Assembly (NCBI GenBank): GCA_018674955.1
Contig: JABGZB010000090.1
Span: forward strand, 1-61,607
DNA: 61,607 nucleotides
Direction: 5' to 3'
From: Verrucomicrobiota bacterium
GTDB lineage: Bacteria; Verrucomicrobiota; Verrucomicrobiia; Limisphaerales; UBA1096
Position numbers and translations under genes: made by a program. Under the pieces are notes generated by a model. The model searched no databases. It was not told the DNA's origin and saw only the letters and a list, made by a program, of their open reading frames with translations. Numbering within the stretch: the stretch's first letter is position 1; every line of letters begins with the position of its first letter. This document shows positions 1 through 44,084 of the stretch, piece by piece.

Positions 1-2
1 AT

Positions 3-88
3 GCGCTCGTGATGGAATTGGTAGACATGAAACCTAGAGGTGGTTGTGCTCAAAAGGCGTAAAGGTTCGAGTCCTTTCGAGCGCACCA
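3..88 (+). tRNA. tRNA-Leu (class II, long variable arm), apparent anticodon GAG
   Basis: The acceptor stem is GCGCTCG/CGAGCGC (7 bp). The D-loop is AATTGGTAGA, the variable arm is long, the T-arm is AAAGG-TTCGAGT-CCTTT, and CCA is encoded. The anticodon stem is AACC/GGTT with loop TAGAGGT, so positions 34-36 read GAG and 37 is G. Position 33 reads A instead of the near-universal U. Confidence 0.8.
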
Positions 89-401
89 TACTAAGCTTCA
101 ATGACTTAGGATTTCAGGGAGTCAAAGTTACACCAAAAGTTACACAATTTTCAACGATGTCAGGGATGTTTATTAGTGTTTCAGAGGACGTTACATATCT
201 ATTTTTTATTAGTCAAGTACGGAGTAAGCATCCCACCCCGGAAATGGATCTCATTCATGACTATGACCTTCTCTGAAAAAATGACTTCTCAAACAACTGG
301 ATAATTAACGACCCTCGCCAGCCGGACGAGGATGTTGGGCTGAAGAAACCGAGTGAGGACAAGTCACTGGCTACCCCACGGCATCCTGTAGCTAAATCAA
401 T

Positions 402-809
402 TCAAGTCTGATTGATCGGTTTCTCCTGTTGTAGCCACTGAACAAACTCCAGCACATTGCCGTCCGGGTCTGCGGCGTACAGCCAGCGAACCATCCCGGG
501 GATCTCCATCGGCCCCTTCAGGAGAATCACTTGTTTTCCACGCAGATCCTGCTCGGTGGCGTGAATGTCATTAGACGCAAATGCCATGTGCGGACAAAAC
601 GAGTGATCATCGGCGGCGCGGCTCTTGGGCAAACGCAGCGACTGGAGTAACTCGAGGCGCGCCCCCTTCATCTCGAGATAGGCGAAGGCTTCACCGTGGG
701 CCTCGTCCACTTTTTTGAACAGAAATTTCAGCCCGATTTTCTGCTCATAAAAGTCTATAGCAGCGTCAAGGTTCGACACCCCAACGGCAATATGGTCGAG
801 CTTGATCAT
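402..809 (-). CDS. VOC/glyoxalase-bleomycin resistance family protein
   Basis: The translation MIKLDHIAVGVSNLDAAIDFYEQKIGLKF is a typical VOC N-terminus. I chose the internal ATG at 809 over the ORF-track start at 836. Confidence 0.7.
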   Translation of the reverse strand: MIKLDHIAVGVSNLDAAIDFYEQKIGLKFLFKKVDEAHGEAFAYLEMKGARLELLQSLRLPKSRAADDHSFCPHMAFASNDIHATEQDLRGKQVILLKGPMEIPGMVRWLYAADPDGNVLEFVQWLQQEKPINQT

Positions 810-938
810 AACAACCCAATGAGACGGGAATGCCAATTCACCGTCAAGCGGTCAGAAAAAAAATGTCGATTTAACTCTTGCCGCCGAACAACAACCATGC
901 GGCGTTCAAGTGGTGGAGCGGGTTGGTTTAGTTGCTAG

Positions 939-986
939 CAGCTTCCAGTTCCTTCTTGGTCCTGCCGCTGTGTTTGCGGAGGAGGT
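939..986 (-). repeat. Diverged copy of the junction repeat (encodes ...LLRKHSGRTKKELEAASN-stop on the minus strand)
   Basis: About 36/48 nt match the copy at 4962-5004, and the encoded peptide is similar. It lies between the Gfo/Idh/MocA stop (1062) and the VOC start (809). Confidence 0.45.
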
Positions 987-1061
987 TGACGGTTAAACCG
1001 CAATGCTTAAGGATGATCACTTTGTCTAAAAGTTTTCTTTCTGCACTCTAGACTAAATAGA

Positions 1062-2393
1062 CTAAAGCGCCCATCCCTGACGATATTCACGCTGGACAAA
1101 ACGGTTTGCTGATTTGTTGTTGGTAACTCGCATGTTGGGACCATCCCAAAGAAGAAGTCCTTCGGTACGAATGGCTAAATTACCCAATAAAACCACCTCG
1201 GTCAAGGGGCCGGAATAATCGAAGTGAGAACAGGCCTTTTCACCCCCCTTACATGCATCCACCCAATTCTGTTCATGTGAACCCTTGACACGAGTAAGTG
1301 TTTTATCCGGTTGCTGGAAGTCACGCATACGCGATAATGGTAGCAAGGTTGGCATACCGCCGTGGGATTTATGCATGATCTTACCTTTGCTCCCAACGTA
1401 TAGCACTCCATCGACCGGCCACTCCTCTTCCGGTTCAAGTTCTTCGGGACGCGGTGGTTTGATGCCTCCATCGTACCATATCATTTTTACAGGAGGGAGC
1501 GTTCCTCGAGACGGGAAGTGGTAGGTAACCAAAGAAGCTAGAGGAGCTGTTTCAGCATGAATATGGGTGCTACTAGCTTCAATACTTTTAGGATAACCCA
1601 GTTTGAGAGCCCAATAGGGATGATCGATAATATGACACCCCATGTCTCCCAAGGCGCCAGTGCCGAAGTCCCACCAACCTCGCCAATTAAAAGGGACATA
1701 ATCTGGGCTGTAATCACGATATGGAGCAGGACCTATCCAAAGATCCCAATCCAGAGTCTCGGGAACGGACTGTTTTCTTTTAGGTCGCTGCGCCACTCCC
1801 TGAGGCCAATATAATTTCCTTTCAAACCGCGTGCCGCGTAGAGGTCGATCACTCCAGCAGTGCACTTCACGCACTTCCCCAATAACTCCAGCCCGAATCC
1901 ATTCCACTGTAAGTCTCGAACCCTCTGAAGAGTGCCCCTGATTGCCCATCTGAGTCGCCACTCGATACTGACGAGCGGCTTCGTCCAATTGGCGGGCCTC
2001 CCAGATGCTGTGAGTCAGCGGCTTCTGTGTGTAGACATGTTTTCCTCTACGTATGGCTTCCATTGAGGCAACAGCGTGCGTGTGGTCGGGAGTAGCCACA
2101 ATCACCGCGTCGATCTCTTTCTCCATCTTGTCAAACATTACCCGAAAATCCTTAAACCTTCTGGCTTTAGGGAATTTTTGAAAAGTCTTGGCACCCCGCT
2201 TAAAGTCTACATCACACAGGGCCACAATATTTTCATTGGAGCACTTTTGTATATTCCCTGATCCCATGCCTCCAACGCCAATCGCCGCAATGTTGAGTTT
2301 ATTGTTCGCTGATGTTGCCTGGATTCTGGATAGAGTGAGACCCGAAATTCCGATTGCTGTACCAGTCTGATGCATGAACCGGCGTCGATTCAT
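1062..2393 (-). CDS. Gfo/Idh/MocA family oxidoreductase with TAT signal
   Basis: MNRRRFMHQTGTAIGISG is a twin-arginine leader. GVGGMGSGN is a Rossmann motif, and ATPDHTHA is the family motif. Confidence 0.85.
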   Translation of the reverse strand: MNRRRFMHQTGTAIGISGLTLSRIQATSANNKLNIAAIGVGGMGSGNIQKCSNENIVALCDVDFKRGAKTFQKFPKARRFKDFRVMFDKMEKEIDAVIVATPDHTHAVASMEAIRRGKHVYTQKPLTHSIWEARQLDEAARQYRVATQMGNQGHSSEGSRLTVEWIRAGVIGEVREVHCWSDRPLRGTRFERKLYWPQGVAQRPKRKQSVPETLDWDLWIGPAPYRDYSPDYVPFNWRGWWDFGTGALGDMGCHIIDHPYWALKLGYPKSIEASSTHIHAETAPLASLVTYHFPSRGTLPPVKMIWYDGGIKPPRPEELEPEEEWPVDGVLYVGSKGKIMHKSHGGMPTLLPLSRMRDFQQPDKTLTRVKGSHEQNWVDACKGGEKACSHFDYSGPLTEVVLLGNLAIRTEGLLLWDGPNMRVTNNKSANRFVQREYRQGWAL

Positions 2394-2534
2394 GACGGTC
2401 TGAAATTGAGGGTAGGAATGCATTTTCCAGAAATCTGCCGAGGCGATCTGTTATTTACACGAAATTAAGGTGTGAACCTAGAAAATCTTTCTAATCGAAT
2501 GATCTGGAATCAAAAACTTGGGCCGCTATTTCCC

Positions 2535-2576
2535 TTCAGCTTTGAATTCTTCACCCGTCTTGCCGCCGTGTTTGCC
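2535..2576 (-). repeat. Junction repeat copy (encodes KHGGKTGEEFKAEGK-stop on the minus strand)
   Basis: The sequence ttcagctttgaattcttcacccgtcttgccgccgtgtttgcc starts 3 nt after the esterase stop codon. Its 32-nt core has 1 mismatch to the copies at 3484 and 4962. Confidence 0.7.
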
Positions 2577-2578
2577 TG

Positions 2579-3478
2579 TTATTTGTCAAAGTGTAACCAA
2601 CCGCTTGAGCGTAACCAATCTTCCAAGCGTGCAGGCCATGAGGAGACCGGATTCTTACTTGGCCGCAAACCATAGCCATGCCCCCCCTTGGCGTAGATGT
2701 GCAACTCTGCACCCACGTTGTGACGTTTAAGCTCGGAATAATAAAGAGCAGCAAAAATTGCCCGGTCAGAATCGTCATGGGTAATGGCAATAAATGTTGG
2801 AGCCGTCTTGGCATTGACCTTCACCAGCGGATCAAGCGTTGATGAATCCCTTTTCGCATTCCCGAGATAGGCCGGATAGATCAGCGCCATGAAGTTGGGG
2901 TGCATACCGAGCTTATCAATTCCATCAATCGGTTTATAGGAATCAACATCCTGATAGGAGGTGGACATGACAGCGAGGTGCCCCCCTGCGCTGAAACCCA
3001 TTACGCCAATCCTCTTGGGATCAATATTCCATTCGTTAGCATTGGAGCGAACCAGTCGGATCGAACGTTGTAAATCCTGTAAGGGCCAAGGGTGCGGCTT
3101 CTTGTTGTCCCGACGTGGCACACGGTATTTTAGTACTACCGCATCAATGCCAAGACTATTGAGCCAAGCCGCGACCTCAGTGCCTTCCTTGTTCCATGCG
3201 AGCTTTCCATAGCCTCCACCCGGACAAATGATGACAGAGGTTCCCGCAGACTTACTTTTTGTTACTGGAAAATGCAGAAGCTCTGGAGTGTCCACATAGG
3301 GAATTCGAATGACATTATCAGAGCCAGTAACAGCCTCAGCCTTCTTTTGAGCAATCCATGCCGGTTCATCAGGTGCTTTACCCGGCCAGACAAGAATGGG
3401 CTCATCTGGTTCAGCAGCCTGGTAGCAATCGATATGAATCAAGAGCGCACTAAGGACTAGGATTAGTATGTGTTTCAT
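2579..3478 (-). CDS. alpha/beta hydrolase (esterase/lipase-like), secreted
   Basis: There is a signal peptide, a PGGGY oxyanion-type motif and a GFSAGGH nucleophile elbow. Confidence 0.8.
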   Translation of the reverse strand: MKHILILVLSALLIHIDCYQAAEPDEPILVWPGKAPDEPAWIAQKKAEAVTGSDNVIRIPYVDTPELLHFPVTKSKSAGTSVIICPGGGYGKLAWNKEGTEVAAWLNSLGIDAVVLKYRVPRRDNKKPHPWPLQDLQRSIRLVRSNANEWNIDPKRIGVMGFSAGGHLAVMSTSYQDVDSYKPIDGIDKLGMHPNFMALIYPAYLGNAKRDSSTLDPLVKVNAKTAPTFIAITHDDSDRAIFAALYYSELKRHNVGAELHIYAKGGHGYGLRPSKNPVSSWPARLEDWLRSSGWLHFDK

Positions 3479-3483
3479 TTGCC

Positions 3484-3515
3484 TTCAGCTTTCAATTCTT
3501 CACCCGTCTTGCCGC
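3484..3515 (-). repeat. Junction repeat copy (encodes GKTGEELKAEGK-stop; its TGA overlaps the esterase ATG)
   Basis: The 32-nt core ttcagctttcaattcttcacccgtcttgccgc is identical to 4962-4993. It fills the 50-nt spacer between two genes. Confidence 0.7.
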
Positions 3516-3528
3516 AGGTCATCGAGTT

Positions 3529-4794
3529 CTACCGCTGCGCCTCGATGCGATACAAATGGCCGCCCGTGCGCATGATGAAAGCATCGCCATCGACGGCGGG
3601 CGTCGCCATGAACGGCTGCTTAGCCAGAGCATTACTGGCGATGACCTCAAGTTTGCGAGTTGGCCGGATGATTGTGGCAAGCCCTTCCTCGTTAAACAGG
3701 TAAATTCGCCCCTCTGCGTAGATGGGCGACGCCGAGTACGCGCCCTTCATACGTTCCTTCCAGACGACCTTTCCGGTTCTCGCCTCAAGGCAGGTCGCGA
3801 TGCCGCCGCGGTTCACGACAAACAACAAGTCATCTACCAGCAACGGCGAACAACGTTGCGGCATGCTGCGGATTGACTTCCATTGAATGTGTGAGTCGGT
3901 CACATCGCCGTTTCCATCGAGACGAATAGCCCATAGCTCCGGCCGATCGCGATCCACTGTGGCAAACACCATCCCGTGACCGGACACCGGACGCGGTGCC
4001 ACCGACCAGCCTCGATGCCGCACGTGCCACAGTTCCTTGCCGGTTTCCGGGTCGTAGGCGTACAGGCCGCGTCCTGCTGGGCTGACAAGCTGTGTGCCCT
4101 CACCGCGCGGCGCCAACGCCGGCATGCAGTACGCCTTGCGATGATTGATGGGAAATGTGGAATACTCGAGGGACCGCGGTGTTTTCCAGACCGTCTTCCC
4201 GGTGACCTTGTCGAGAGCGATGATGTACTGCACGTCACGCCCGTCCACATGCACCACCAAATTGCCATCAACGAGAGTCGGCGAACTGGCCGGCCCAGCG
4301 CCCGCCTCGTGGTCGCAGTTTAAGTCGCGCCGAGTCCACAACACCCTGCCAGTGGCAGTGTCCAGACAGGCCGTGCCGTAGGTTCCAAAATGAAGAATCA
4401 CCCGGCCCTCACTGATCACCGGCGTAGGCGTCGCGTAGGTGTTGTCCTTCGTGATCCGCATCGGCTTGGCCACGTCGAACAAATGCAGATCGTGAAGAAT
4501 CTTCCCGTTGTCCTTGTCCACGCAAATCGCGAACAGCTTACGGCCTTTGGCCGTTGCCGTGGTCAACCATACCTGACTACCCCAGATCACCGGTGACGAC
4601 CAACCTCGATTGTGAATGGCCGTTTTCCAAGTCACATTCTGCGACTCCGACCACCTCAGAGGCAGGCCGGTGGACTTCGTGTGCCCGTCGCCGCTTGGCC
4701 CACGGAACTGCCACCAATTTTCCTCGGCAGAAACTGGTGTAAGCACAAGGAACAAAAACGCGAAACAAGCCAACCGCTTGGCCAAGCTTTGCAT
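3529..4794 (-). CDS. PQQ-like beta-propeller repeat protein, secreted
   Basis: MQSLAKRLACFAFLFLVLTPVSA is a signal peptide. Repeated W-x-motifs are typical of PQQ/BamB-like propellers. I chose the internal ATG at 4794. Confidence 0.75.
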   Translation of the reverse strand: MQSLAKRLACFAFLFLVLTPVSAEENWWQFRGPSGDGHTKSTGLPLRWSESQNVTWKTAIHNRGWSSPVIWGSQVWLTTATAKGRKLFAICVDKDNGKILHDLHLFDVAKPMRITKDNTYATPTPVISEGRVILHFGTYGTACLDTATGRVLWTRRDLNCDHEAGAGPASSPTLVDGNLVVHVDGRDVQYIIALDKVTGKTVWKTPRSLEYSTFPINHRKAYCMPALAPRGEGTQLVSPAGRGLYAYDPETGKELWHVRHRGWSVAPRPVSGHGMVFATVDRDRPELWAIRLDGNGDVTDSHIQWKSIRSMPQRCSPLLVDDLLFVVNRGGIATCLEARTGKVVWKERMKGAYSASPIYAEGRIYLFNEEGLATIIRPTRKLEVIASNALAKQPFMATPAVDGDAFIMRTGGHLYRIEAQR

Positions 4795-4820
4795 GGTTGC
4801 CGGAAAAACAAATGAGGCTT

Positions 4821-4961
4821 TCACGTTGCAGTCAATTTGGAGGGAGAGAGGCCCTCTCGGCGGGCGCGAGTGCAGGTAACAGCATATTTGCCAAAATGGC
4901 AATGGACGATCACCACCAGTAACTCAATGAGCGTGAATGCCCGTCTTAATTGAGCTTTCAT
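4821..4961 (-). pseudogene. Truncated prepilin-type N-terminal methylation-domain gene fragment
   Basis: [18 protein letters not shown] is a class III signal/methylation motif. It runs straight into unrelated sequence (VHCHFGKY...) instead of the conserved [13 protein letters not shown] seen in the intact paralogs at 11947 and 12736. It is fused in frame to the junction repeat upstream. Confidence 0.45.
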
Positions 4962-5004
4962 TTCAGCTTTCAATTCTTCACCCGTCTTGCCGCCATGTTT
5001 GCGG
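4962..5004 (-). repeat. Junction repeat copy (encodes ...ADFLRKHGGKTGEELKAE)
   Basis: The sequence is ttcagctttcaattcttcacccgtcttgccgccatgtttgcgg. This is the longest copy. Confidence 0.7.
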
Positions 5005-5108
5005 AGGAAGTCGGCGATCGTTGTGGTTAGGACTGCTTTTCGTAATAAAATGTTTTGCATTTTCTCGCGGGTCTCCTCTTGGTTTTGTCTGGACGGACTT
5101 GCGAAGAA

Positions 5109-7712
5109 TCAGCGCTCAGCCTTGGCATAGACATCGAGCTGATGGATCGACCAGTGCTTGCCATCCGCCATCCCAATCTGGTTAATGCGGACAAAACGCG
5201 TCTTTGTTGCCGGGAGCAGGATGTCGGTGACGGGTGAATTTCCTTTCTGAGGACTGACCACCTGCTTCCATTGCTCGCCATCATCGGAAACTTCCAGCGT
5301 GTAGCGGCGCGGATAATCGGCGGGTGAACCCTCGCAGCGCAACGTGATCCCGGTGAGTTCGCGAGACTCCTTCATATCAAAGGAGAACCACATGCCCTTC
5401 CGCTGCGCACGACCAGTGTCCCATCGTGTTCTCGGATTGTTATCGATGGCCTGATCGCATCCTTTGCTCTGGTGACTGGCGGTCAGTTCCCACTTTGCCA
5501 TCTCGGCTGCAGGAATCGGAGCCATGGCCAAGATCTCTGATGACAGGAACATTTCCTTGCGATCGGCGATGGCTGCACGAACCGCTGCGACGTCATCCTT
5601 ACTGACGGACTTGCCCTTGTTTCCCCATGCACTGCGTACATAGGTCAGCACCGAGCCCAGCCATTCATCATCATAGGATTCGAGCGGCAACATTGGGCCA
5701 GGATACGACTTGCCATCCAGCTCGCCATGCATCCCTTTGAGCAGGATCTTGATGGGGATGGTTTTCCGTCCGAGAACGCGAGGCGAACCCACGAGTGGGG
5801 CTCCGAGCATTACTCCATCCAAACCGGGAGCGGAAGTGCCTTTGCCGTTCGCTCCGTGGCAGGCAACGCAAACGGTCTGGAAATTCACCTCACCCTGGGC
5901 CGCGAATTTGCTCTTCTCCTGACGGCGTTTGGCATCGACCATCCGGGCATGCCCGATCTCGGTGATGCGGCTCATTGCTTCGCTATCGGGATGGCCCGCA
6001 TTGGCTGCCTCCACCAATTCATCGCCGCCTTCGACTCCCGTGTAGGCCATCGACAACACGACTTGAATCGCGACATCGATGTCGGCATCAGAAGCAAGCG
6101 GTTTGATTGCAGTGAGCAATGCTGTATTCCTCTTCAGCAGTTCGGGTTCGCAAAGTCGTACCACCGCCGCACGGACACGGGCATCTGTGTCTCGCATTTT
6201 TTTAACGATCAGATCTGTATCGAAAACTCCGAGTCCCTCCAGCGTCCACAACGCATGTAGCCTGCCTAACGGGCTCCCGCCACTCTCGGCCAGGCTTTTG
6301 AGCGCAGGAACAGCACCCCTATCCTGACGCACGACGATCAACTTCTGAGCCATGTCCCGCCACCAGCCATTCGGGTGAGAAAGCGTGTCGACCAGTTCTG
6401 AGGTCGGCGCCTTGAGCATCTGTGGTTTCTTTCGGCGCTCGATTGATTCATGGACGATGCGATAGATCCGTCCGCGCTGAATGTTCTTATCCAGCCCGTA
6501 GTTTTCGACGATCGGCCGAAGGTACGAACCGGGGCGCACCCAGTTGCCCTCCTGAATGATCCCGCGGTACATGTCACAAAGGTAAAGGCACCCGTCCGGC
6601 CCCGTCTTGGCATTGACGGGCCGAAAGTTGGCATCGCGGCTGCGCAGGAATTCTGTGCCTGGCGTGGCATTGTGCACTACCAATTTACCATTCTCATTCA
6701 CAACCTTTGCACGACGCACCAGCCGCCCGACCGGTTCTGGAATGATGTAGTCGCCGTAGAAATCTTCGGGCAGGCGATCGCCACGAAAAATGTGCTGACC
6801 TGCGCAGCCGGTGAAATTATTGAGCGTCAGACTGTCGGCACGGAATCGTCCCTTGCCACCCTGCACGTCGGGAATCTGTACTAGCGGGAACACTTCGCGA
6901 AAACCATTCACCTGCTCACCGGGGAGAGAAATTTTGCCGTAGACGAGCGGTCGTTGAAAATGCATTGCCGGGTTCTCCCCACCTGCCGTGCAGAAAAAAT
7001 TGCGCCCGACGTCATCATGCGTCACGCCCCATTGACCAGAACCACCGGGAATATCTTCAGCGATCACCTTGTCCCCTGCCCAGCGGTAACGCTTGGCGGT
7101 GTAGGTCACATACATCCAGTTGTCGATGTTCCACTCGAGTCCACTGGGCTGGTGCTCAAGGTTACCCCCGCGCTTGCCCCCTTCGTAGACCAGTTTCTTC
7201 TCATCGGCGATGCCATCGCCGTCCGTGTCTCGATAGCTGTGCAGGTCAAAGGTATCCGTTTCACGAATCAATACCCGATCATCAATCGGCTGGATCATTC
7301 GCGGCAGCTTCAACCCATCCACGAACACCGAGCGTTTGTCCATGCGGCCGTCGTCATCGGTATCCTCAAGGAGCACAACACGACAGATCGGGTTGTGCTG
7401 GTTCTTGCCATCGATTTCCTGCATGTAGGTGTTCAACTCCGCCACGTAGAGTTTTCCATCGCCATCGAATGCAATCGCTGCTGGTTCCTGCACCATCGGT
7501 TCAGCGGCCACAAGCTCGACGCGATAGCCCTCCTGGAGCTCCATCATCGCCATGCTTTCTTCCGGCGAATAGGTGCGGGCTTTGGTATCATAGAGCTTCT
7601 GATCGAAGGGTTCTGCAAGAAGCACATTGCCTGAAAACAAGGCAAGACCGATCCAAGTGAGAGGCCGTAAACTACGGAAACAGGAGAATTGGGGAAACAG
7701 GCAGTGCATCAT
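5109..7712 (-). CDS. PVC-type heme-binding / membrane-bound dehydrogenase-like protein with HEAT repeats, cytochrome c motif and C-terminal F5/8 type C (discoidin) domain
   Basis: CVACHG is a CxxCH heme site. The N-terminal region resembles a dehydrogenase-like beta-propeller. The C-terminus NNPRTRWDTG...YTLEVSDDGEQW is discoidin-like. Confidence 0.8.
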   Translation of the reverse strand: MMHCLFPQFSCFRSLRPLTWIGLALFSGNVLLAEPFDQKLYDTKARTYSPEESMAMMELQEGYRVELVAAEPMVQEPAAIAFDGDGKLYVAELNTYMQEIDGKNQHNPICRVVLLEDTDDDGRMDKRSVFVDGLKLPRMIQPIDDRVLIRETDTFDLHSYRDTDGDGIADEKKLVYEGGKRGGNLEHQPSGLEWNIDNWMYVTYTAKRYRWAGDKVIAEDIPGGSGQWGVTHDDVGRNFFCTAGGENPAMHFQRPLVYGKISLPGEQVNGFREVFPLVQIPDVQGGKGRFRADSLTLNNFTGCAGQHIFRGDRLPEDFYGDYIIPEPVGRLVRRAKVVNENGKLVVHNATPGTEFLRSRDANFRPVNAKTGPDGCLYLCDMYRGIIQEGNWVRPGSYLRPIVENYGLDKNIQRGRIYRIVHESIERRKKPQMLKAPTSELVDTLSHPNGWWRDMAQKLIVVRQDRGAVPALKSLAESGGSPLGRLHALWTLEGLGVFDTDLIVKKMRDTDARVRAAVVRLCEPELLKRNTALLTAIKPLASDADIDVAIQVVLSMAYTGVEGGDELVEAANAGHPDSEAMSRITEIGHARMVDAKRRQEKSKFAAQGEVNFQTVCVACHGANGKGTSAPGLDGVMLGAPLVGSPRVLGRKTIPIKILLKGMHGELDGKSYPGPMLPLESYDDEWLGSVLTYVRSAWGNKGKSVSKDDVAAVRAAIADRKEMFLSSEILAMAPIPAAEMAKWELTASHQSKGCDQAIDNNPRTRWDTGRAQRKGMWFSFDMKESRELTGITLRCEGSPADYPRRYTLEVSDDGEQWKQVVSPQKGNSPVTDILLPATKTRFVRINQIGMADGKHWSIHQLDVYAKAER

Positions 7713-7732
7713 AAGATATATACGGAATTTAT

Positions 7733-7951
7733 TTAATAAAAATTAGTAGTCGCCATCTTCCACACGTCCACGCTGTCTACTTTAATCTGCTCATCTCCAC
7801 TAAAGATTTTCACCTCATTACTATTTTCAGTTTCAGGATAAACAACTTGAGTCATACACTGTCTTCCGTTGACAAATACTTCAATAATAGCCTTATCAAT
7901 GAAAATATTTAATTGCAGTGTTTCGCCCTTCTTTAACTCAAAAGGAGCTCT
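7733..7951 (-). pseudogene. Start-less remnant of a glycoside hydrolase C-terminal beta-sandwich (GH32-like)
   Basis: The minus-strand open frame has no start codon. It reads APFELKKGETLQLNIFIDKAIIEVFVNGRQCMTQVVYPETENSNEVKIFSGDEQIKVDSVDVWKMATTNFY-stop. The L-x-I-F-x-D-x-x-x-x-E-V-F-x-N-x-G pattern is typical of GH32 C-terminal domains. It lies in an AT-rich 355-bp gap between two genes. Confidence 0.45.
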
Positions 7952-8067
7952 CTATTCTGACACCTTTTCTCTAAATCCTAGTTTTCCGAGATCGGCGGTC
8001 TGGCCCATTAAGACAGATCGCATTTTGCCTGTCGATCTCTCCGCCGAAGCAGCCGAGTTCGGAACCC

Positions 8068-9435
8068 TCACAGCAACCAACCTTTTCGATAGGGCGTGTG
8101 AAGAAATTCGTTGGCATCTGCGTGATCGAATTCGAATTTCTCCGCGTTCCAGTTCAGCTTCACCCCGGGCGTTCGCTGGGCGGCTACGCCGAGCAGCACC
8201 ATTTGAGTGAGCTGTCCGCCGTAGTCGGCAAAGTTGGAGCTGGCGGGATTGCCATCCTTGCAGGCGCGAAGCCAATCGCCCATGTGTCCGCCCCTAACGC
8301 GCGGAATCGTTTTCTCGGGGCGGACGAAACCTTTCATCCGGATTTCCGGAATGAGGCGAGCCCCACCCGCTCCGTGAGAACCGTGCAAAATAGTTTCCTT
8401 CTCGCCGTAGATCACCGCACCGCTTGCCGGTAGTTTTCGACCTTCCTCCAGCATGGGTGGGCGGGGAACCGTGTAGACCCCATCATGCCAGACCAGCTTC
8501 ATCGGGCAGAGTGTTCCACGTTGAGGAAACTCGTAGGTTACGGTGGCCGCTATGGGGTGGGCCTTACCGGCTAATTCAGGTTTGTGGTGTTTGACTTCAG
8601 CGGTGATGCTGCTGGGATTCATGAGGTCCAGCGCCCAGCATGCGGGATCCAGAATGTGACAACCCATATCGCCCAGCGCGCCAGTTCCGAAATCCAACCA
8701 GGCCCGCCACTTGAACGGATGATAGGCTGGACTGAACTTCCGATCCTGCGTCGGGCCGAGCCAGAGGTCCCAGTTGAGACTGTCGGGTACAGCAGGAAAG
8801 TCCGAGGGTAAATCTCGAGCGCCAAAGTTGGCGTACCAGGGGCCGTCGTCCGGACGATCGGTCCAGGCGTGCACTTCTTTGACATCGCCGATGGAACCGG
8901 ACTGAACCCACTCGCGGACGACACGGATGGCATCCGAGGAATGCCCTTGATTGCCCATCTGGGTCTGAACCTTGGACGCGCGTGCCGCAGCAGTAATCTT
9001 GCGCGCTTCCTCGACGGTGTGGGTCAGCGGTTTCTGGCAGTAGACATGCTTGCCCATCTCGATGGCTGCCATGGTGATGACTGCATGGGTATGATCCGGA
9101 GTCGCGATCACGACCGCGTCGATATCCTTCTGTTTTTCAAGCATTAGCCGATAGTCGACATACGTGGCTGCGTTGGGATGGGCTTTAAACGTTTTTCCCG
9201 CGTACGCGCTGTCGACATCACACAGGGCGACGACATTTTCCCCTTTGCAGGCTCCGATGTTGCCCCGCCCCATCCCGCCGATGCCGATGCCGGCAATGTT
9301 CAACTTTTCACTGGGCGGGGTCTTTCCGTTCGCCCCGACCACATGCCCGGGAACGATGGAAAAAACAGTGGCCGCGGTGGTACCGATTTTGATGAATGAC
9401 CGGCGTGATAGCTCTTTTTTACGTGTGTTTCTCAT
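8068..9435 (-). CDS. Gfo/Idh/MocA family oxidoreductase with TAT signal
   Basis: The leader is SRRSFIKIGTTAATV, and GIGGMGRGN and ATPDHTHA are present. It is a paralog of the genes at 1062-2393 and 42798-44084. Confidence 0.85.
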   Translation of the reverse strand: MRNTRKKELSRRSFIKIGTTAATVFSIVPGHVVGANGKTPPSEKLNIAGIGIGGMGRGNIGACKGENVVALCDVDSAYAGKTFKAHPNAATYVDYRLMLEKQKDIDAVVIATPDHTHAVITMAAIEMGKHVYCQKPLTHTVEEARKITAAARASKVQTQMGNQGHSSDAIRVVREWVQSGSIGDVKEVHAWTDRPDDGPWYANFGARDLPSDFPAVPDSLNWDLWLGPTQDRKFSPAYHPFKWRAWLDFGTGALGDMGCHILDPACWALDLMNPSSITAEVKHHKPELAGKAHPIAATVTYEFPQRGTLCPMKLVWHDGVYTVPRPPMLEEGRKLPASGAVIYGEKETILHGSHGAGGARLIPEIRMKGFVRPEKTIPRVRGGHMGDWLRACKDGNPASSNFADYGGQLTQMVLLGVAAQRTPGVKLNWNAEKFEFDHADANEFLHTPYRKGWLL

Positions 9436-10045
9436 ACTGTTTCTTCCTGTCGTTTTTTGGTGCTATTTCGTCTCTGGACCAATCCAGTGCTTCTGGATAA
9501 CCAGTCACCAATCGTAGGCGTGCCAAACGGCCATATTTTATGGCAAGAAAAGCTGATCCATCAGCGGCGACGCCACCATTGCCGATGGGGGAATCATCGT
9601 ATCTGTACTCGTGCACACGCTTTTTCTTTTCAAGGTCGTACAGGACGGTAAATAATTTGCCCGTCTTGACATCTCGGTCGTTAAAAAAGAACTGTGTTTC
9701 AGCTTTCAACGGGTTCCAATAAAACATGGTGCCCTGCTGGGGATTGCATGCGTGTGTTTTGTCTAACCGTACAATCTTGTTGTTCTGGTCGGTATCAATG
9801 ACAAACACAGTAGAGGCCTCATCAGGGTTCGGCATGCGATCGATTCTGTCTATTTCAAGGCCCAGCACATATCGTCCACTGGCGTTCCACGGAATCGTCT
9901 GGCATTGGCCGATGTAGCCAAAAAAATGATGCTTTTTGCCAGAATTCAGTTGCTCAACCTTCAAACTGATTAAGGGTTTTATTTCAGCATAATTTTTCAG
10001 GCAACCGACGACGCTAACAAACAAAATGGCTAATACTTTCATCAT
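9419..10045 (-). CDS. Hypothetical secreted protein, possibly a truncated beta-propeller family gene
   Basis: The start is MMKVLAILFVSVVG at 10045. The ORF ends 17 nt inside the start of the next gene and looks short for its family. No recognised catalytic motif. Confidence 0.4.
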   Translation of the reverse strand: MMKVLAILFVSVVGCLKNYAEIKPLISLKVEQLNSGKKHHFFGYIGQCQTIPWNASGRYVLGLEIDRIDRMPNPDEASTVFVIDTDQNNKIVRLDKTHACNPQQGTMFYWNPLKAETQFFFNDRDVKTGKLFTVLYDLEKKKRVHEYRYDDSPIGNGGVAADGSAFLAIKYGRLARLRLVTGYPEALDWSRDEIAPKNDRKKQYEKHT

Positions 10046-10139
10046 AGAATAATTGTTTATATTGTAAGTGAAAATATCTGGAAACAACTGTGCCCCACCA
10101 CCAGCAGCACGGCTGCGATTTTTGTGAGTAGGAGGTGTT

Positions 10140-10988
10140 TCATTTCTTTCGCTTCTGAGAGAACATCCACTCCATAAACCCATCTGTGAAGTACGCGAAG
10201 TCGTCAATAACATGACCTTGTGATTTGTATTCGTGATACCTGACGTCGGCGGCACCTGCATCCTTTAGGGCTTTGAAGCTGATGCGTGAGCCTTTGACCC
10301 CTTTATCGCCATCCCCGTTGAAAATCCAAATGGGGATTTGCTTGATGGCTTTTGCTTCTTCAGCATTTTGCGGGCCGTGGAAGTAGCCAGATAGTGGAGC
10401 AGCGGCTGCAAACTTGTTTGGAAATGCGCGGATAAAATTCCACGTACCCTGGCCTCCTCGAGAAAAACCGGTCAGGTAGAGCCGATCCACGTCTACGTTA
10501 GCGGTATTTGGATTATCATTCAGTTCAGCGACCATGTCATCAAGGGCGTTGATGGTCATCGTTCGATATTCGTCGCTCGACCAATTGTCCTCTTTCTTCC
10601 GATTACGAGGCACGAAAAGAATGTGCGGGTGGGCTTTTTGAATCTTTGGCAGCGACCACACCCCCTTGGGGAAACCTTTGTGCGTATCGATCGTAAGATC
10701 AGTATAGCCGTGAAGAAAAGTCACCACCGGATACTTCACACCGGCCTTGAGATGTTTCGGGACATAGAAGTGATAAGGCAGCCCGTTGTTGTGTTTCCGA
10801 TCTTCGTAAAGCGTATCGAGGTTCTTGATCGACCCTATCTCGTTTCTAATCGCCTTAAGCTTTTTGGTTTCTTCTACGGTTATAATTCTAGAAACACCGG
10901 GCTGAGCAATGGCTAGTTGCACCACAGTGCAACTGAAGATTAGGGCTAAATGAACTTTATTTCGGACATAACGTTTCTTGAGGTTCAT
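10140..10988 (-). CDS. alpha/beta hydrolase (carboxylesterase/dienelactone hydrolase-like), secreted
   Basis: There is a signal peptide, a GFSRGG nucleophile elbow, and C-terminal GDGD...H catalytic-type residues. Confidence 0.75.
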   Translation of the reverse strand: MNLKKRYVRNKVHLALIFSCTVVQLAIAQPGVSRIITVEETKKLKAIRNEIGSIKNLDTLYEDRKHNNGLPYHFYVPKHLKAGVKYPVVTFLHGYTDLTIDTHKGFPKGVWSLPKIQKAHPHILFVPRNRKKEDNWSSDEYRTMTINALDDMVAELNDNPNTANVDVDRLYLTGFSRGGQGTWNFIRAFPNKFAAAAPLSGYFHGPQNAEEAKAIKQIPIWIFNGDGDKGVKGSRISFKALKDAGAADVRYHEYKSQGHVIDDFAYFTDGFMEWMFSQKRKK

Positions 10989-11107
10989 TTTTTCTGCCTA
11001 GTGCTGCCTCGATTTTGGCCCGGGTAGTGGGCTTCAGGTCGGAGCATTGCATGGCCTATTGTAGTTGGGCGCGAAGCGCTGTGTCAAGGGACAGGGCGGT
11101 AGGGATG

Positions 11108-11134
11108 AAGGTTCGAGTCCTTTCAAGCGCACCA
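11108..11134 (+). repeat. Direct repeat of the tRNA-Leu 3' end (candidate att site / displaced tRNA 3' end)
   Basis: aaggttcgagtcctttcAagcgcacca matches positions 62-88 at 26/27 nt in the same orientation. It is followed by a T-run (attttttc). No complete cloverleaf can be drawn upstream of it. Confidence 0.6.
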
Positions 11135-11155
11135 TTTTTTCTTCCTTCAAGCTGC

Positions 11156-11167
11156 ACTTGGCCAAGC
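11156..11167. repeat. Iterated palindrome copy (aCTTGGCCAAGc), intergenic
   Basis: This is the first copy after the tRNA-fragment repeat. Confidence 0.9.
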
Positions 11168-11179
11168 GCAGAACACGAC

Positions 11180-11947
11180 TTACTGGCCGCCGAAGGCTGG
11201 GTTGAGCCAAGGCGTCCTTGCGTAAAACCAGAACGGTTTCATCGCCTCGACATGACCGTCGGAGAGCGAGTTGACACTGCGCCCGCCGTGACGCAGGTGC
11301 GGGCCGCCCCACCACGGGTTTCCAAGCCCGGTCATGCAGGAAGGGCAACCGGAGCCGTTGATCATCACGGCAGGATCGCCAATCATAAACGCGCCGAGCT
11401 TGGTGGTTGAATTCACATCGACACTCGGGTTTTTGCTGGCGTTGGCCTGCACGCCGGAGTCCACGAGGTACACCACTTTCGAGTGGTTCTTCACGCTGGA
11501 ATCCTTGGTGTGTACATAATTGACCCAGTGGCTCAACTCGCCTCCAAGCACGTGGTTCATCGCGTAGTCGGTCGCTACGGGATAGGGGAAGGGCGTGCCG
11601 CCGACGTGGGTGGTCTTGATGCGTTTGCCCTTGCGCGATGGGCAAACGAGGATGTTGGTCGTGTTCAGGTACGGATCAAGCAACTCGTACCAAGTGTGGA
11701 ACACTTTTGAAAAGGGCGGGTGGACGAAGATCACGACGTTTTTGTCTTCGTTGTCGGAAGTGTACATTTTGCCGGCGAGGAGGATCTGCTTGTTGTTGTT
11801 GACGCAGTACGCCTCGTGCGCCTTGGACTTGGCCTTGGCCAATGCCGGCAGCAGCATGGCGGCCAGGATCGCAATGATCGCAATGACTACCAGCAGTTCG
11901 ATCAACGTAAATGCCGCCGGCCTTTGGGGTTTCATTTTAGTCTTCAT
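11180..11947 (-). CDS. Prepilin-type N-terminal cleavage/methylation domain protein, DUF1559 / H-X9-DG family
   Basis: The N-terminus contains [25 protein letters not shown]. The C-terminal [13 protein letters not shown] fits H-X9-DG. Confidence 0.8.
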
Positions 11948-11980: not shown

Positions 11981-12736
11981 CTAATTCGACGGTCTTCGCG
12001 GTCCATCGAACAAGAAGGTCCAGTTCGGTCCATTTTGAAAATCCGGTTTGTCGTATGCGGCTCGAAAATAATCAATGTGGTTATCGAGAAAAGCCACGTT
12101 ACCCCACCCGGGTTCGGAATCGTGATGCCAAAGGCTGTATTGAAAGGGTTTGTTAGTGGGTCCCGGAACCTCCTGTTGCCATCCGTAGGCGCAGACCGAA
12201 TAGTCGTTGGCTAAAATGACCTGAGACGGTGCGCGAATCTGACTCATCTTTTTGCCGTGGAGTCCGTTGGATCCATTGGAGTTGCCGCCACTGTTGTAAA
12301 AATAACTGTTACCGAATGTGTCAAATAAGCTGGGTTTGCGCTTGGCACCCCACCGGCCCGGTGTGGCTCCGTCATCCCTCGGGCATTTGAAAATTCGGAA
12401 GACTCCCTCGTTGTCGTCTTGTTTGACCTTTCGGTTAATTGTGACATACGGATTAATCATCCGTTCCTGGGCCAAGTATTCCGTTCCTCGTTTGCCTCCC
12501 CAAGAATAATAGGACAACACGGGGCCGCCTTTATGGGAAGGTAGTCCGTCTTCGTTGTCATCGACGTAAAGAAGTGTGGCCAAGGATTGCTGGAGAAGTT
12601 GACTGGAACAAGCCGCGCGTTGGGCCGTTTTCTTTGTGGACGCCAACGCCGGCAGCAGCATCGCAGCCAAAATCGCAATGATCGCGATGACCACCAGCAA
12701 CTCTATCAGCGTGAAGGCTCCAGTTTTTTTTATCAT
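11981..12736 (-). CDS. Prepilin-type N-terminal cleavage/methylation domain protein, DUF1559-like
   Basis: [32 protein letters not shown] chose the internal ATG at 12736. Confidence 0.8.
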
Positions 12737-12831
12737 CAGCGGCCCCGCAAAAGACTCAACACCGCCCCAAAGTTCAAGCCCTATTTGGTCGTGCCCCAAA
12801 ATGGCCCGAGTTGTTGACGGCTCCCGGACGG

Positions 12832-14307
12832 TCACTTCACGCCGTGACGGCGTAGGTGTTCCTCGAACCAGGCATTGACGGCGCCGCTCCGGACCGACGG
12901 GTGGTACGGGGCTTCCTCGGTGGGTAGTTCCCTACGGAATTGCTTGAGCAACTTGGCGTATTCGGGACGGGCCGCAAGGTTGATCCACTCGTTGGGATCG
13001 TCGGCGTGGTCGTAGAATTCCTCGGAGCCATCCTCAAAGCGCAGGTAGCGGTGGCGCTCGGAGCGCAATGAATGATTGCCGCGGGCGTAGGTGGTCAGCG
13101 TGGCAAACCGCCAGTCCGCCAAGGGATTCCTGAGCAACGGAACCAAGCTCTCCCCCTGGTTGCTCTTCTTCGCGGGCAAACCGCATATCTCGAGCATCGT
13201 CGGATAAAGGTCGATCAACCCGACCGGCTTGGAGCAAAGCTGCCCCGCTTTACCGAACTGCTTGCCCTGCGACTTGGCCGGGACGATGACGAGAGGCACC
13301 CGCGCCGATTCCTCCCACAGGCTGTGCTTGCTCACGCGATCCTTTTCACCGAGATGGTAGCCGTGATCGCTGAACAGAACGACGACGGTATCGCCACCAT
13401 GCGGCCCCTTGTCCAGGGCGTCGAGTACGCGGCCAACCTGGTGGTCCACGAAGGCCACACAAGCCAGGTAGGCTTGGACGCATTTGCGAAACTGCTCGTT
13501 GTCGTTCGTCTGTAGAAAGGCGAGTCTGGGGTACTTCGGTAGTTCATGGATGCGGCGGCTGATCTCGGGGACGTCGAGCAGATCGTCATTGCGGACAGGC
13601 GGCAACATCACGTCATCCAGGGGAAAAAGGTCGAACCACTTTTGGGGGACGTAGAACGGGACGTGCGGCCGAATAAAACCAACGGCGAGGAAGAACGGCT
13701 CCTTGCTCTCCCCGGCGAGGCGTTCCACGGCCCAGTCGGCCGACTTGTGGTCGCTCATGTCGTCGTCCTTCTCGGGAAAGGCACCCCAGTCGGTCTGGGT
13801 GCCTGTCCACGGCACGTCGGGCAAATGGTAGTTGAAACGCCTCCCGCCGGACGGCTTGGGGCCGGAGCCGTCGAACTTGCTGCCATAGGAATCAAAAGCC
13901 AGCTTGGCCGGATACCCGTGGGTGATCTTGCCGACCGCCAACGTGCGGTAACCATGATCGGCGAAGCAATGCGAAACCATCTGGCCGTGGAAGAAGGTCT
14001 TGTCCTGCTCCATGGCCTTGCCCGCGGGCTGTTGGTAGACACCCGTGACATGGGGATAGTAACCGGAAAGGAGCGACGCGCGAGACGGCCCGCAGATAGG
14101 CCCTTGGCAATGGGCGTTGACGAACAAGGTGCCCCGCTTGGCCAAGCGGTCGATGTTTGGGGTGCGGGCCTGCGGATGCCCATCGAGACAGCCGACCCAA
14201 TCGTTGAGATCATCGATGGCGATGAAGAGCACGTTCGGCTTGGCCAAGGAGTGGGCGGCGGCAGTCAGGCACAGCGCGAGCATGACGGTAAACTTTCGAC
14301 AAGTCAT
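12832..14307 (-). CDS. Sulfatase (formylglycine-dependent arylsulfatase family)
   Basis: There is a signal peptide, the motif [11 protein letters not shown], and [11 protein letters not shown], which is the C-x-P-x-R sulfatase signature. Confidence 0.9.
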
Positions 14308-39489: not shown

Positions 39490-39551
39490 TTTGCCTATAC
39501 TAACTCATAATTCACTTGCAATGAACAGGTTACGGATTCGGGTTCGGGCGT

Positions 39552-39566
39552 TGGCACGGGACTTGC
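39552..39566 (+). promoter_or_regulatory. Candidate sigma-54 (-24/-12) promoter for glnB
   Basis: TGGCAC-gggac-TTGC matches TGGCAC-N5-TTGC exactly. It is oriented toward glnB, about 66 nt before the ATG. Confidence 0.45.
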
Positions 39567-39622
39567 CGCTTTTTTGGAGCGAAGAGTTCCGCAGACCGGT
39601 AACTCCGCTCGCGAAGAATTGA

Positions 39623-39970
<348 letters not shown>

Positions 39971-40004
39971 GGCTAATCTTGTTTGTCGAAAGACAAAACA
40001 AAAA

Positions 40005-40031
40005 GGGAGCCGTTTCCGGCTCCCTTTTTTT
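40005..40031. terminator. Bidirectional rho-independent terminator
   Basis: GGGAGCCG-tttc-CGGCTCCC forms an 8-bp stem. It is flanked by an A-run upstream and a T-run downstream. It lies between the convergent glnB and the 40061-42652 gene. Confidence 0.75.
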
Positions 40032-40060
40032 AATCTCATCTGCCAGGCGTTTGGTCAGGG

Positions 40061-42652: not shown

Positions 42653-42797
42653 TGTTTTTTGGTCGGCTGGAGAGGCGAGTGTTCTGCGTTTCCCCGGGCA
42701 GGTCAATCCCAAAACACCACGCCGAATCGCTTGGCCATGCGCGGCCGGCTGTGGCAAGCTTGACCAAGCGCTAAACCGACTCTTTTATCGAAAAACA

Positions 42798-44084
42798 ATG
42801 AAAAACAGTATCCTCAACCGTCGCCGTTTCCTGCAACACTCCGCCGCTGGAGTCACCGCCGCCGCCTTGGCCAAGCGCCACTCGCTACACGCCGCCAACA
42901 AGGCCGCCAACAAGCTGCGAGTCGGCGTGATAGGCCTTGGCCGCGGCATGGCACACGTCAAGAATTACCTGAAACTCTCCGACGTCGAGGTGGCCTACGT
43001 TTGCGACGTCGATGACAACCGCACCGCCAACGGCCTGTCGGTCGTCACCAAGAGCCAGGCGGCGGCGTGCCGGGGCATCACCGATCTGCGACGCATGCTC
43101 GACGATCCGCACCTCGACGCCATCTCCATCGCCGCGCCGAATTTCTGGCACGCGCCGGCGACCATCCTCGGCTGCCAAGCCGGCAAGCATGTTTACGTCG
43201 AGAAACCCGGAAGCCACAACGCCGCCGAGGCGGGGTTAATGGTCGCCGCCGCGCGCAAGCACAAGCGCCTTGTGCAGATGGGCAACCAGCGGCGTAGCTA
43301 CCCGCTCATCATCGAGGCGATACAGCGGATGCGCGAGGGCGTCATCGGGCGAGTGCTCGCGTCGCGCAGTTTCTACTCAAGCGGCCGCGGCTCCATCGGC
43401 AAGGGCAAACCGGCGCCCGTGCCCAAGCATCTCAATTACGACCTGTGGCAAGGGCCGGCACCGGAGCGCCCGTACAAGGACAACCTCATCCCGTACAACT
43501 GGCATTGGCACTGGCATTACGGCGGCGGCGAGATGGCCAACAACGGCGTGCATGCGCTTGACCTCGCCCGCTGGGGGCTCGGCGTCGATCTGCCGCAGCG
43601 CGTCACCTACGGCGGCGGACGCTACCACTTCGACGACGACCAGGAATCCCCCGACACCGGCACGGCGCTGTTCGATTTCGGCAACTGCACCGCTATTTGG
43701 GACCAGAGCAGTTGCCTCCGGCGCAAGCACGAGGCGCTGCCGTTTGTGGTTTTTTATGGGGACAACGGCACCCTCACCATGACCACCGGGAACAAGTACA
43801 TCATCCACGACCTCGCCGGAAAGGAAGTCGAAACCAAGAGCGCACCGGCCAGCGATTTTTTGCACTTCACAAACTTCGTGAACGCCATTCGCAACGGCGA
43901 AAAACTTAACGCAGAAATCGGCGACGGGCAGGTCAGCACCCTGCTCTGCCACTTGGCCAACATGGCCTGGCGCTCAGGCAGCACGGTGGACTTCGACCCG
44001 GCCAAGCGCAGCATCGTCGACAACCCGGCCGCAGCCAAGCTGTGGGCACGTGAGTACCGACCCGGCTGGGAGCCTCAAGTTTGA
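42798..44084 (+). CDS. Gfo/Idh/MocA family oxidoreductase with TAT signal
   Basis: The leader is MKNSILNRRRFLQHSAAGVTAAALA, with GLGRGMAH and AAPNFWHA present. I chose the internal ATG at 42798. Confidence 0.85.
   Translation: MKNSILNRRRFLQHSAAGVTAAALAKRHSLHAANKAANKLRVGVIGLGRGMAHVKNYLKLSDVEVAYVCDVDDNRTANGLSVVTKSQAAACRGITDLRRMLDDPHLDAISIAAPNFWHAPATILGCQAGKHVYVEKPGSHNAAEAGLMVAAARKHKRLVQMGNQRRSYPLIIEAIQRMREGVIGRVLASRSFYSSGRGSIGKGKPAPVPKHLNYDLWQGPAPERPYKDNLIPYNWHWHWHYGGGEMANNGVHALDLARWGLGVDLPQRVTYGGGRYHFDDDQESPDTGTALFDFGNCTAIWDQSSCLRRKHEALPFVVFYGDNGTLTMTTGNKYIIHDLAGKEVETKSAPASDFLHFTNFVNAIRNGEKLNAEIGDGQVSTLLCHLANMAWRSGSTVDFDPAKRSIVDNPAAAKLWAREYRPGWEPQV

Follow-up and report, generated by a model that had tools for sequence, protein, structure and literature searches.

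A probable remnant of a tRNA-integrated genomic island at tRNA-Leu(GAG) in an uncultured marine Verrucomicrobiota bacterium

The block at tRNA-Leu(GAG)

Here, we examine an ~11-kb block (positions 3-11134) that lies between a tRNA-Leu(GAG) gene and a displaced copy of its 3' end in an uncultured marine Verrucomicrobiota bacterium (assembly GCA_018674955.1). The window is the whole of contig C185 (JABGZB010000090.1; 61,607 nt) of the source genome G000, a metagenome-assembled genome (MAG) of 476 contigs and 4.04 Mb that is 88% complete, and 25 congeners (G005, G008, G009 etc.) were compared with it; contigs cited by number alone belong to the source genome. A first-pass annotation made from the window alone had described a tRNA-Leu gene, a distal direct repeat and a low-GC block of co-directional genes without an integrase, and had interpreted them as an integrated island. 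This description is confirmed, and the interpretation is partly supported: the block is probably the decayed remnant of a mobile genomic island that was inserted in tRNA-Leu and whose integrase was later lost. The features that define its two ends are as follows.

3-88, plus strand: tRNA-Leu(GAG), complete but atypical, in the attL position (ARAGORN; Rfam 3-85, 37.7 bits)
89-357, plus strand: candidate island end, the tRNA-side arm (P'), ~270 nt, non-coding, present after many tRNAs in the genus
10985-11103, minus strand: 3' remnant of a gene here called orfX, covering roughly its final 45 codons and containing an in-frame TAG (tBLASTn against orfX of G008:C2)
11101-11134, plus strand: displaced 3' fragment of tRNA-Leu(GAG), the putative attR core, with T arm, acceptor strand and CCA (26/27 against 62-88)
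11135-11145, plus strand: T-run and ~11 nt of tRNA-Leu downstream flank (TTTTTTCTTCC), like TTTTTCTTCC in G010:C212
11157-11166: first iterated palindrome (CTTGGCCAAG) and start of congener homology in core DNA (3' end of a prepilin-type N_methyl gene)

The tRNA-Leu(GAG) at 3-88 is the sole tRNA called by ARAGORN in the window and the sole tRNA-Leu(GAG) found in the MAG. It exceeds the Rfam gathering score of 29 but scores lower than congener genes (52.4 and 51.9 bits). Position 33 is A instead of U, a change in the D stem is compensated, and the anticodon stem contains an A·G mismatch. Compared to the G009 gene, it has six differences, all of which are within the first 60 nt and at positions in sequence otherwise invariant among intact congener tRNA-Leu(GAG) genes; the last 27 nt are identical. 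As originally reported, these 27 nt (62-88) recur in the same orientation at 11108-11134 with one mismatch, a match that did not arise in any of 100 shuffles, and the similarity extends to 55-89 versus 11101-11135 (89% identity over 35 nt). The distal copy itself is no tRNA: ARAGORN made no call and Rfam gave no match at E<=1, and the idea that 11020-11140 contains another tRNA or a tRNA pseudogene was rejected. TTTTTT directly follows the distal copy, in line with the initial view that the run resembles a tRNA terminator; T-runs are also found 3' of tRNA-Leu genes or fragments in G009, G010, G018, G005 (C515) and G008, and the TTTTTCTTCC that follows the tRNA-Leu fragment of G010:C212 matches the flank after the fragment in the window. 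The proposed attL/attR pair is thus upheld in that the tRNA and its 3' fragment are att-type remnants, backed by congener islands, and is qualified in that the tRNA is an atypical copy.

Other congeners testify to traffic at the same gene. An integrase lies ~100 nt 3' of tRNA-Leu(GAG) in G018 and G005, tRNA-Leu 3' fragments are held by G010 and G008, and further extra, degenerate or truncated tRNA-Leu(GAG) copies are present in congeners. tRNA-Leu(GAG) is a repeatedly used integration site, and the region is composite in this species.

In composition, the block is distinct to a modest degree. Its lower G+C content is borne out (0.524 for 1-11134 versus 0.603 for the rest of the window), and its 5-kb windows fall in the 7th to 22nd percentile genome-wide; ~14% of all windows of the source genome have a GC below 0.54 and are likewise palindrome-poor. 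The palindrome core TTGGCCAA is highly iterated across this genome (0.78 per kb). The near-absence of the palindrome from the block holds as a count, with one copy inside versus 45 outside and ~9.9 expected inside (Poisson P=5e-4), but measured against the rate in low-GC windows of the genome (~0.3 per kb) the deficit is not significant (P=0.14). The first outside copy is at 11157/11158. An exact change of these signals at the left border, as had been asserted, could not be known, because the contig begins 2 nt before the tRNA. A second low-GC (0.495), palindrome-poor stretch lies at 39500-43000 in this contig of 0.60 GC and may be another accessory insert.

An arm common to tRNA-linked islands of the genus

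The sequence that follows the tRNA gives the block its place among islands of the genus. When 14 copies from 7 or more tRNA identities are aligned, this 270-nt arm begins ~10 nt past the CCA end, and it is present behind at least six tRNA identities other than tRNA-Leu, with hosts including tRNA-Ser(CGA) (four species including G000, C136/C144), tRNA-Arg(TCT) (two), tRNA-His(GTG) (two), tRNA-Gly(CCC) and tRNA-Glu(TTC); it also follows bare tRNA 3' fragments on C311, G021:C60 and G017:C13. The arm contains tandem AAAGTTACACC repeats, which in the window read AAAGTTACAC(C) at 124-134 and 136-146, and a near-invariant CAACTGGATAATTAACG (284-313 in the window; aligned copies in 11/14 loci). The tandem GTTACAC motif is found in the source genome only at window position 127 and on C311. 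The repeat motif of the arm also adjoins the integrase in G017:C13, G015:C20 and G020:C234, and the integrase-adjoining tRNA islands of G000 carry paired tandem 8-10-nt repeats between tRNA and integrase. Because it is conserved and bears tandem repeats as integrase-proximal arms do, the 270-nt sequence looks like an att arm.

Two other identities of this stretch were rejected. A transposon end is ruled out by the lack of an inverted copy of the arm at the other end of the block. An integrase remnant, which the first-pass annotation had proposed to look for at 89-400, is ruled out by six-frame PF00589 and tBLASTn searches, the stretch being conserved non-coding arm; the sole mobility-module remnant lies at the opposite end, at 10985-11103. 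A tiny conserved frame precedes CAACTGGATAATTAACG (ATGACC TCT CAG GCA ACT GGA TAA; 7 codons, or 13 from an upstream ATG).

Several lines of evidence from congeners indicate what this arm belongs to. First, G017:C13 has, in order, a tRNA fragment, the 270-nt arm, four minus-strand genes, a PF00589 integrase, repeats, a tRNA-His fragment and core DNA. Its cargo is an RND efflux operon plus a cyclic nucleotide monophosphate (cNMP)-binding protein; its integrase is on the minus strand and frameshifted, with GAGTTACACC/GCTACACC repeats beside it, followed by the ~30-nt tRNA-His 3' fragment; and the core beyond that fragment has an aminotransferase IV gene, high GC and palindromes. Second, the integrase end is repeated in G015:C20 and G020:C234, both of which are cut by the contig end, with 88-94% protein identity to the integrase of G017:C13, and the integrase-side arm of these relatives carries GTTACACC-type repeats as in the 270-nt arm. 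Third, tRNA fragments of equal extent are found for tRNA-His in G017, G015 and G020 and for tRNA-Ser in G019. Fourth, empty sites exist. On C20 of the source genome, the same flank comes immediately after tRNA-His, and in G009:C171, tRNA-Ser(CGA) is directly joined to the flank that is occupied in G019:C183. tRNA-Ser(CGA) is occupied in G019 (tRNA and arm on C104; orfX remnant, 31-nt fragment and flank on C183), G022, G017 (47 kb from tRNA to flank) and G000. Altogether, the integrase, the arms, the fragment and the empty and occupied alleles in congeners support the arm family as a real integrative element. The window resembles the three tRNA-His islands in its arm with AAAGTTACACC repeats, its minus-strand cargo and, at the far end (11101-11134), a tRNA 3' fragment of ~30-34 nt from the T stem; unlike them, it has neither an integrase of its own nor an integrase-side arm.

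In G017:C3, ~47 kb of mostly low-GC, palindrome-poor DNA (51100-98220) lies between tRNA-Ser(CGA) and the ancestral flank on a single 318-kb contig. Within it are three orfX remnants, a degenerate tRNA-Leu(GAG) at 64951-65036 and homologues of the glyoxalase-family (VOC) and esterase genes of the window, and an integrase fragment is found at 46.9 kb, just past the flank.

A second island type left its trace at the right end. orfX is a 147-aa open reading frame (ORF) that is complete only in G008:C2, where a module directly after tRNA-Lys consists of an integrase, a D5_N/DUF5906 primase, a helix-turn-helix (HTH) protein and orfX, and a cargo array with a PQQ propeller among its genes comes next. 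The copy in the window has an in-frame stop and an indel. A near-consensus promoter is predicted in it (TTGACA-N18-TACAAT, 11087 to 11058; 11/12 consensus matches), pointing into the cargo array. Among the 22 orfX remnants in the genus, the truncation points range over residues 23-111, about ten remnants begin at residues 81-98, just upstream of the promoter, and those at tRNA-Ser in G019 and G022 are cut at different codons. The pairing of orfX remnant and tRNA fragment was therefore rejected as a site-specific junction, the truncation differing among G019, G022, the window and the 22 remnants. Since the truncation varies and the promoter end is kept, we read the junction as a deletion of recombination genes.

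No integrase accompanies the block, as had been stated at the outset: a six-frame search of the whole genome gave no PF00589 match on C185, and tBLASTn with two congener integrases detected no remnant in the window. Likewise, there is no integrase on C466, a contig discussed below, and no close homologue of the arm-family integrase in the MAG.

Borders and origin of the block

On the right, BLAST alignments of the flank to G009, G010, G022, G016, G017 and G013 start at 11157-11179, and for the first flanking gene (prepilin-type N_methyl, 11180-11947), congener alignment runs from 11157-11196 on, at least 22 nt past the repeat, with nothing leftward. Because no congener aligns left of 11157-11196, the block is accessory. 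A second prepilin-type N_methyl gene at 11981-12835 is without an orthologue at this place in G009, where the position corresponding to 11914 is directly followed by the homologue of 12642 onward, and the alignments of G010, G013 and G022 skip the same stretch; the core flank itself varies by gene gain or loss. In G022, a tRNA-Gly(GCC) (C249, 972-1047) lies 316 nt left of the orthologue of the right-flank gene; the neighbouring tRNA is a different one in another species.

On the left, the contig ends, and three independent metagenome contigs that are 98-99.5% identical to the window extend upstream of the tRNA. They contain a plus-strand ankyrin tail, a 140-nt spacer, of which the MAG has no other copy, and AT-rich accessory DNA. 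The idea of a discrete island flanked on either side by core DNA thus fails on the left, where the border is accessory in all three contigs. In G009, the flank upstream of tRNA-Leu(GAG) is orthologous to contig C466 of the source genome, and on C466 a decayed 5' part of a tRNA-Leu (5480-5546, minus strand) abuts that flank; this part reaches to the variable arm at ~84% identity and has no T arm. The adjoining C466 DNA (1-5200) is low in GC and, like the window cargo, carries its genes (a 104-aa ankyrin gene, two sulfatases and an esterase) on one strand, opposite to the tRNA fragment.

We favor a model, to which we assign a probability of roughly 0.65, in which tyrosine-integrase islands built a composite low-GC accessory region at tRNA-Leu(GAG) that was then immobilised by decay, with 3-11134 as its tRNA-distal segment. 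In sufficiently intact relatives of the genus-wide family, the layout is tRNA, 270-nt arm, minus-strand cargo, minus-strand integrase, GTTACACC-repeat arm, ~30-nt tRNA fragment and core. Of this, the window retains the tRNA-side arm (89-357) and the ~34-nt tRNA 3' fragment (11101-11134), whereas the integrase and the integrase-side arm would have been deleted. The 3' end of orfX, which would stem from the integrase-primase-HTH-orfX module of the second type with the integrase beside the tRNA, would now abut the fragment, and this remnant probably survives as a source of a sigma-70 promoter for an array encoding secreted esterases, twin-arginine translocation (TAT) oxidoreductases, a propeller and a cytochrome c protein. 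We suggest that the tRNA at 3-88 is probably hybrid or island-borne and not an untouched chromosomal gene, and that nothing encoded in this MAG would be able to excise the island.

A number of observations weigh against this model. The cargo-strand integrase and the GTTACACC-repeat arm that stand beside the fragment in the family are both missing from 10985-11107. orfX belongs to the other island type, which makes the right end a secondary junction with an inferred history. The DNA left of 11157 differs in nearly all congeners examined, and this border is therefore also a synteny breakpoint; with left neighbours that differ, a rearrangement at the border is required as well. None of the 25 congeners searched, with 11 flanks read, has tRNA-Leu directly joined to the sequence from 11135 onward, the empty site that had been expected, although G009:C29, G017:C27 and G010:C169 break at the critical point, so that its absence is unproven. 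The upstream DNA of the three metagenome contigs shows no core, and neither the 5' fragment on C466 nor accessory DNA on both sides of the tRNA is predicted by a single classical integration. C466 and C185 are separate contigs. Finally, in a MAG of this completeness, the missing part could contain another tRNA-Leu(GAG) or a cognate integrase. Because the integrase is absent and neither an empty site nor a core left flank was found, the block is best described as degenerate, immobilised and composite: it is an ordinary island that works like and derives from a tRNA-integrated one. The earlier proposal of an island immobilised or moved in trans is retained as regards the att-type remnants of an integrase-less island and abandoned as regards a discrete island.

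As in Islander/TIGER islands integrated at tRNA or tmRNA genes, there is a complete target tRNA at one end, a displaced 3' fragment in direct orientation at the other, foreign composition and accessory cargo, and Islander requires an integrase inside the island (PMC4383910). Also as in those islands, congeners have tyrosine integrases at the same site class and several islands accumulated at one tRNA. Unlike them, the window has no integrase, its tRNA is atypical and inside accessory DNA with core DNA beyond the right end only, a 5' fragment stands beside the upstream flank, and no empty site was recovered. Degenerate "anchored" islands without integrase or att function, e.g., many Escherichia coli pathogenicity islands at tRNA genes, would be an analogous case in that the recombination module is lost, the island is fixed and att remnants stay readable. 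They differ from the window in that it comes from a free-living marine Verrucomicrobiota and its cargo serves carbohydrate and oxidoreductase metabolism, and in the promoter-bearing gene end from another island type beside attR. P4-like or phage-inducible chromosomal island (PICI)-like islands with a module of integrase and D5-type primase (G008:C2 at tRNA-Lys; C5, C379 and C307 of the source genome) are the source of orfX and have the same layout of module, orfX and cargo with an orfX cargo promoter; in contrast to the window, their integrase is beside the complete tRNA and their cargo reads away from it, whereas the window cargo reads toward the tRNA and ~120 nt of the module are left.

A bolder version of the history is, in our view, tentative. 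In it, the island-borne or hybrid tRNA at 3-88 would now be the only tRNA-Leu(GAG) of the cell, the native gene having been split and having decayed into the 5' part on C466 and the fragment at 11101-11134; in a related possibility, such blocks would be mobilised in trans. If the former is true, the host would rely on a tRNA embedded in an island, and this dependence would lock the accessory region in place despite the absent integrase. If the latter is true, integrase-less blocks that keep the 270-nt arm would be movable by an incoming integrase of the G017 type.

Two simpler histories fare worse than our model. That no integration occurred at all, with the distal 27-mer arising by duplication or rearrangement of the tRNA, the variable region by homologous recombination at the recurring ankyrin-tail and signal-peptide junctions, and the arm being a tRNA-downstream element with another role, strikes us as unlikely. 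The absent integrase, the single-gene shuffling of the cargo with breakpoints at repeats, the synteny breakpoint at the right flank and the mosaic origin implied by a third-codon-position GC (GC3) of 0.47 to 0.70 among the cargo genes would all fit it, and arm copies at the same tRNA in different species carry common indels and so look vertically inherited. However, arm-bearing islands have an integrase and a tRNA fragment of equal extent at their other end, tRNA-His and tRNA-Ser have occupied and empty alleles, and the repeats of the arm match those beside the arm-family integrase. A simple classical island, as first annotated, in which 89-11107 entered a chromosomal tRNA-Leu(GAG) with core DNA upstream, the target was regenerated as the tRNA at 3-88 and only the integrase was lost, seems less likely still. 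It would account for the geometry of the direct repeat, for the T-run after the distal copy and for an arm behind the tRNA just as at other tRNAs, but not for the AT-rich, ankyrin-tailed DNA upstream in the metagenome contigs, for a G009 upstream flank orthologous to C466 that abuts a decayed 5' fragment, or for the six differences at otherwise invariant positions in the 5' 60 nt of the tRNA.

Finally, an assembly or binning artefact that joined the first 11 kb to the rest from a different molecule or strain at tRNA-like sequence could be imagined in a 476-contig MAG with several contigs starting or ending at tRNAs and with a composition shift at the join, but it is very improbable given that no exact word above 18 nt is common to the two tRNA-like copies, which could thus not merge assembly paths, that window 1-5524 is reproduced in independent assemblies, that the low-GC, palindrome-poor style is found in ~14% of the genome and in long single congener contigs, and that the junction bears a tRNA-Leu downstream motif seen in G010.

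The significance of the locus is modest. It offers a starting point for studying the way in which an uncultured marine Verrucomicrobiota genus builds a large low-GC accessory compartment: two island types occupy many tRNA genes, the tRNA-side arm marks one of them, and promoter-bearing module remnants outlast the mobility genes. The arm and the orfX remnant can be used as markers to delimit islands in fragmented MAGs and to explain contig breaks at tRNAs. Useful as local details, the promoter-bearing remnant, the integrase-distal architecture and the conserved arm establish no new principle.

Cargo genes, their junctions and related loci

The cargo annotation made at first pass is borne out by Pfam, and every large ORF of the block reads from the minus strand, with decayed fragments interspersed, as described there and seen in ORFs and translations.

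402-836, minus strand: VOC/glyoxalase-family enzyme (PF00903, 6.8e-15)
931-977, minus strand: tail remnant of an ankyrin-lipoprotein gene (..KHGGKTGEELKAEGK), from a repeat family of four (translations)
1062-2423, minus strand: Gfo/Idh/MocA oxidoreductase, TAT signal NRRRFM (PF01408 + PF19051)
2529-2575, 3478-3524 and 4956-5002: the other three ankyrin-tail copies (repeat search)
2579-3478, minus strand: alpha/beta-hydrolase esterase (BD-FAE / Abhydrolase_3) with an MKH.. signal-peptide start (Pfam, translation)
3529-4902, minus strand: PQQ-like beta-propeller protein (PF13360, 1e-24)
4903-5108, minus strand: decayed fragments, with an ankyrin tail and a prepilin-type N-terminal methylation motif (translation)
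5109-7712, minus strand: DUF7133-HEAT-cytochrome c-F5/8 type C (discoidin) protein (Pfam)
7713-8067, minus strand: decayed C-terminal fragment of another gene (..IEVFVNG..), now non-coding (translation with stop codons)
8068-9435, minus strand: second Gfo/Idh/MocA oxidoreductase, TAT signal SRRSFIK (Pfam, N-terminus)
9419-10261, minus strand: 280-aa ORF of no family (no Pfam match), overlapping a decayed MKHLLL.. lipoprotein start at 10143
10140-10988, minus strand: esterase (DLH/Esterase family), first gene of the array (Pfam)

Both Gfo/Idh/MocA proteins have an RR(R/S)F twin-arginine motif. Gene junctions in the array are marked by the four 47-nt ankyrin tails and by conserved MKH.. signal-peptide starts, and an intact 104-aa ankyrin gene with an identical tail is present on C466. 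The cargo genes occur one at a time at unrelated congener loci, and homology of single genes to other genomes stops at the ankyrin-tail and signal-peptide motifs. We suggest that the cargo may have been exchanged gene by gene via recombination at these junctions. In its co-directional single-gene units, its short conserved junction repeats and its drive from one end, the array is similar to those of integrons and of clusters of attC sites lacking integron-integrases (CALIN). It differs from them in that its units meet at gene remnants, namely an ankyrin tail and a lipoprotein signal start, rather than at attC hairpins, and in that there is no IntI; only distant imperfect inverted repeats and no junction hairpins were found, attC models not having been run.

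Individual genes have relatives elsewhere. The VOC gene together with the arm has 87% nucleotide identity to G017:C3 downstream of tRNA-Ser, and 90% identical copies of the PQQ propeller are found at other loci in G010 and G021. For the DUF7133 gene, G010:C25, G013:C363 and G017:C4 have counterparts at 97-98% identity, the homology being limited to window 5012-7643. Recent horizontal transfer of this gene is not claimed, as other segments common to these species reach 94-98%. The homology boundaries lie just past the signal peptide on one side and at an ankyrin tail on the other, and the DUF7133-cytochrome c-discoidin gene is also present, at the same 97-98% identity, in public MAGs from ALOHA, the eastern tropical North Pacific (ETNP) and Fram Strait. 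Exact-protein look-ups of the VOC and Gfo proteins returned no records.

This kind of feature is common, and the source genome holds many that are similar: six-frame PF00589 and fragment searches identified a minimum of 14 additional tRNA 3' fragments, along with several integrases next to tRNAs. Fragments outside tRNA genes lie on C63, C25, C451, C373 (two copies), C311, C433, C388, C313, C93, C384, C463 and C105, and their identities are Val-GAC, Gly-TCC, Arg-ACG, Gln-TTG, Leu-TAG, Met and Lys-TTT; the Gly-TCC fragments have a common conserved upstream arm from another island family. Contigs C75, C155, C185, C307, C161, C446, C136 and C66 begin or end at a tRNA gene or a few bases away, and tRNA-linked repeats, the 270-nt arm among them, seem to be where the assembly breaks.

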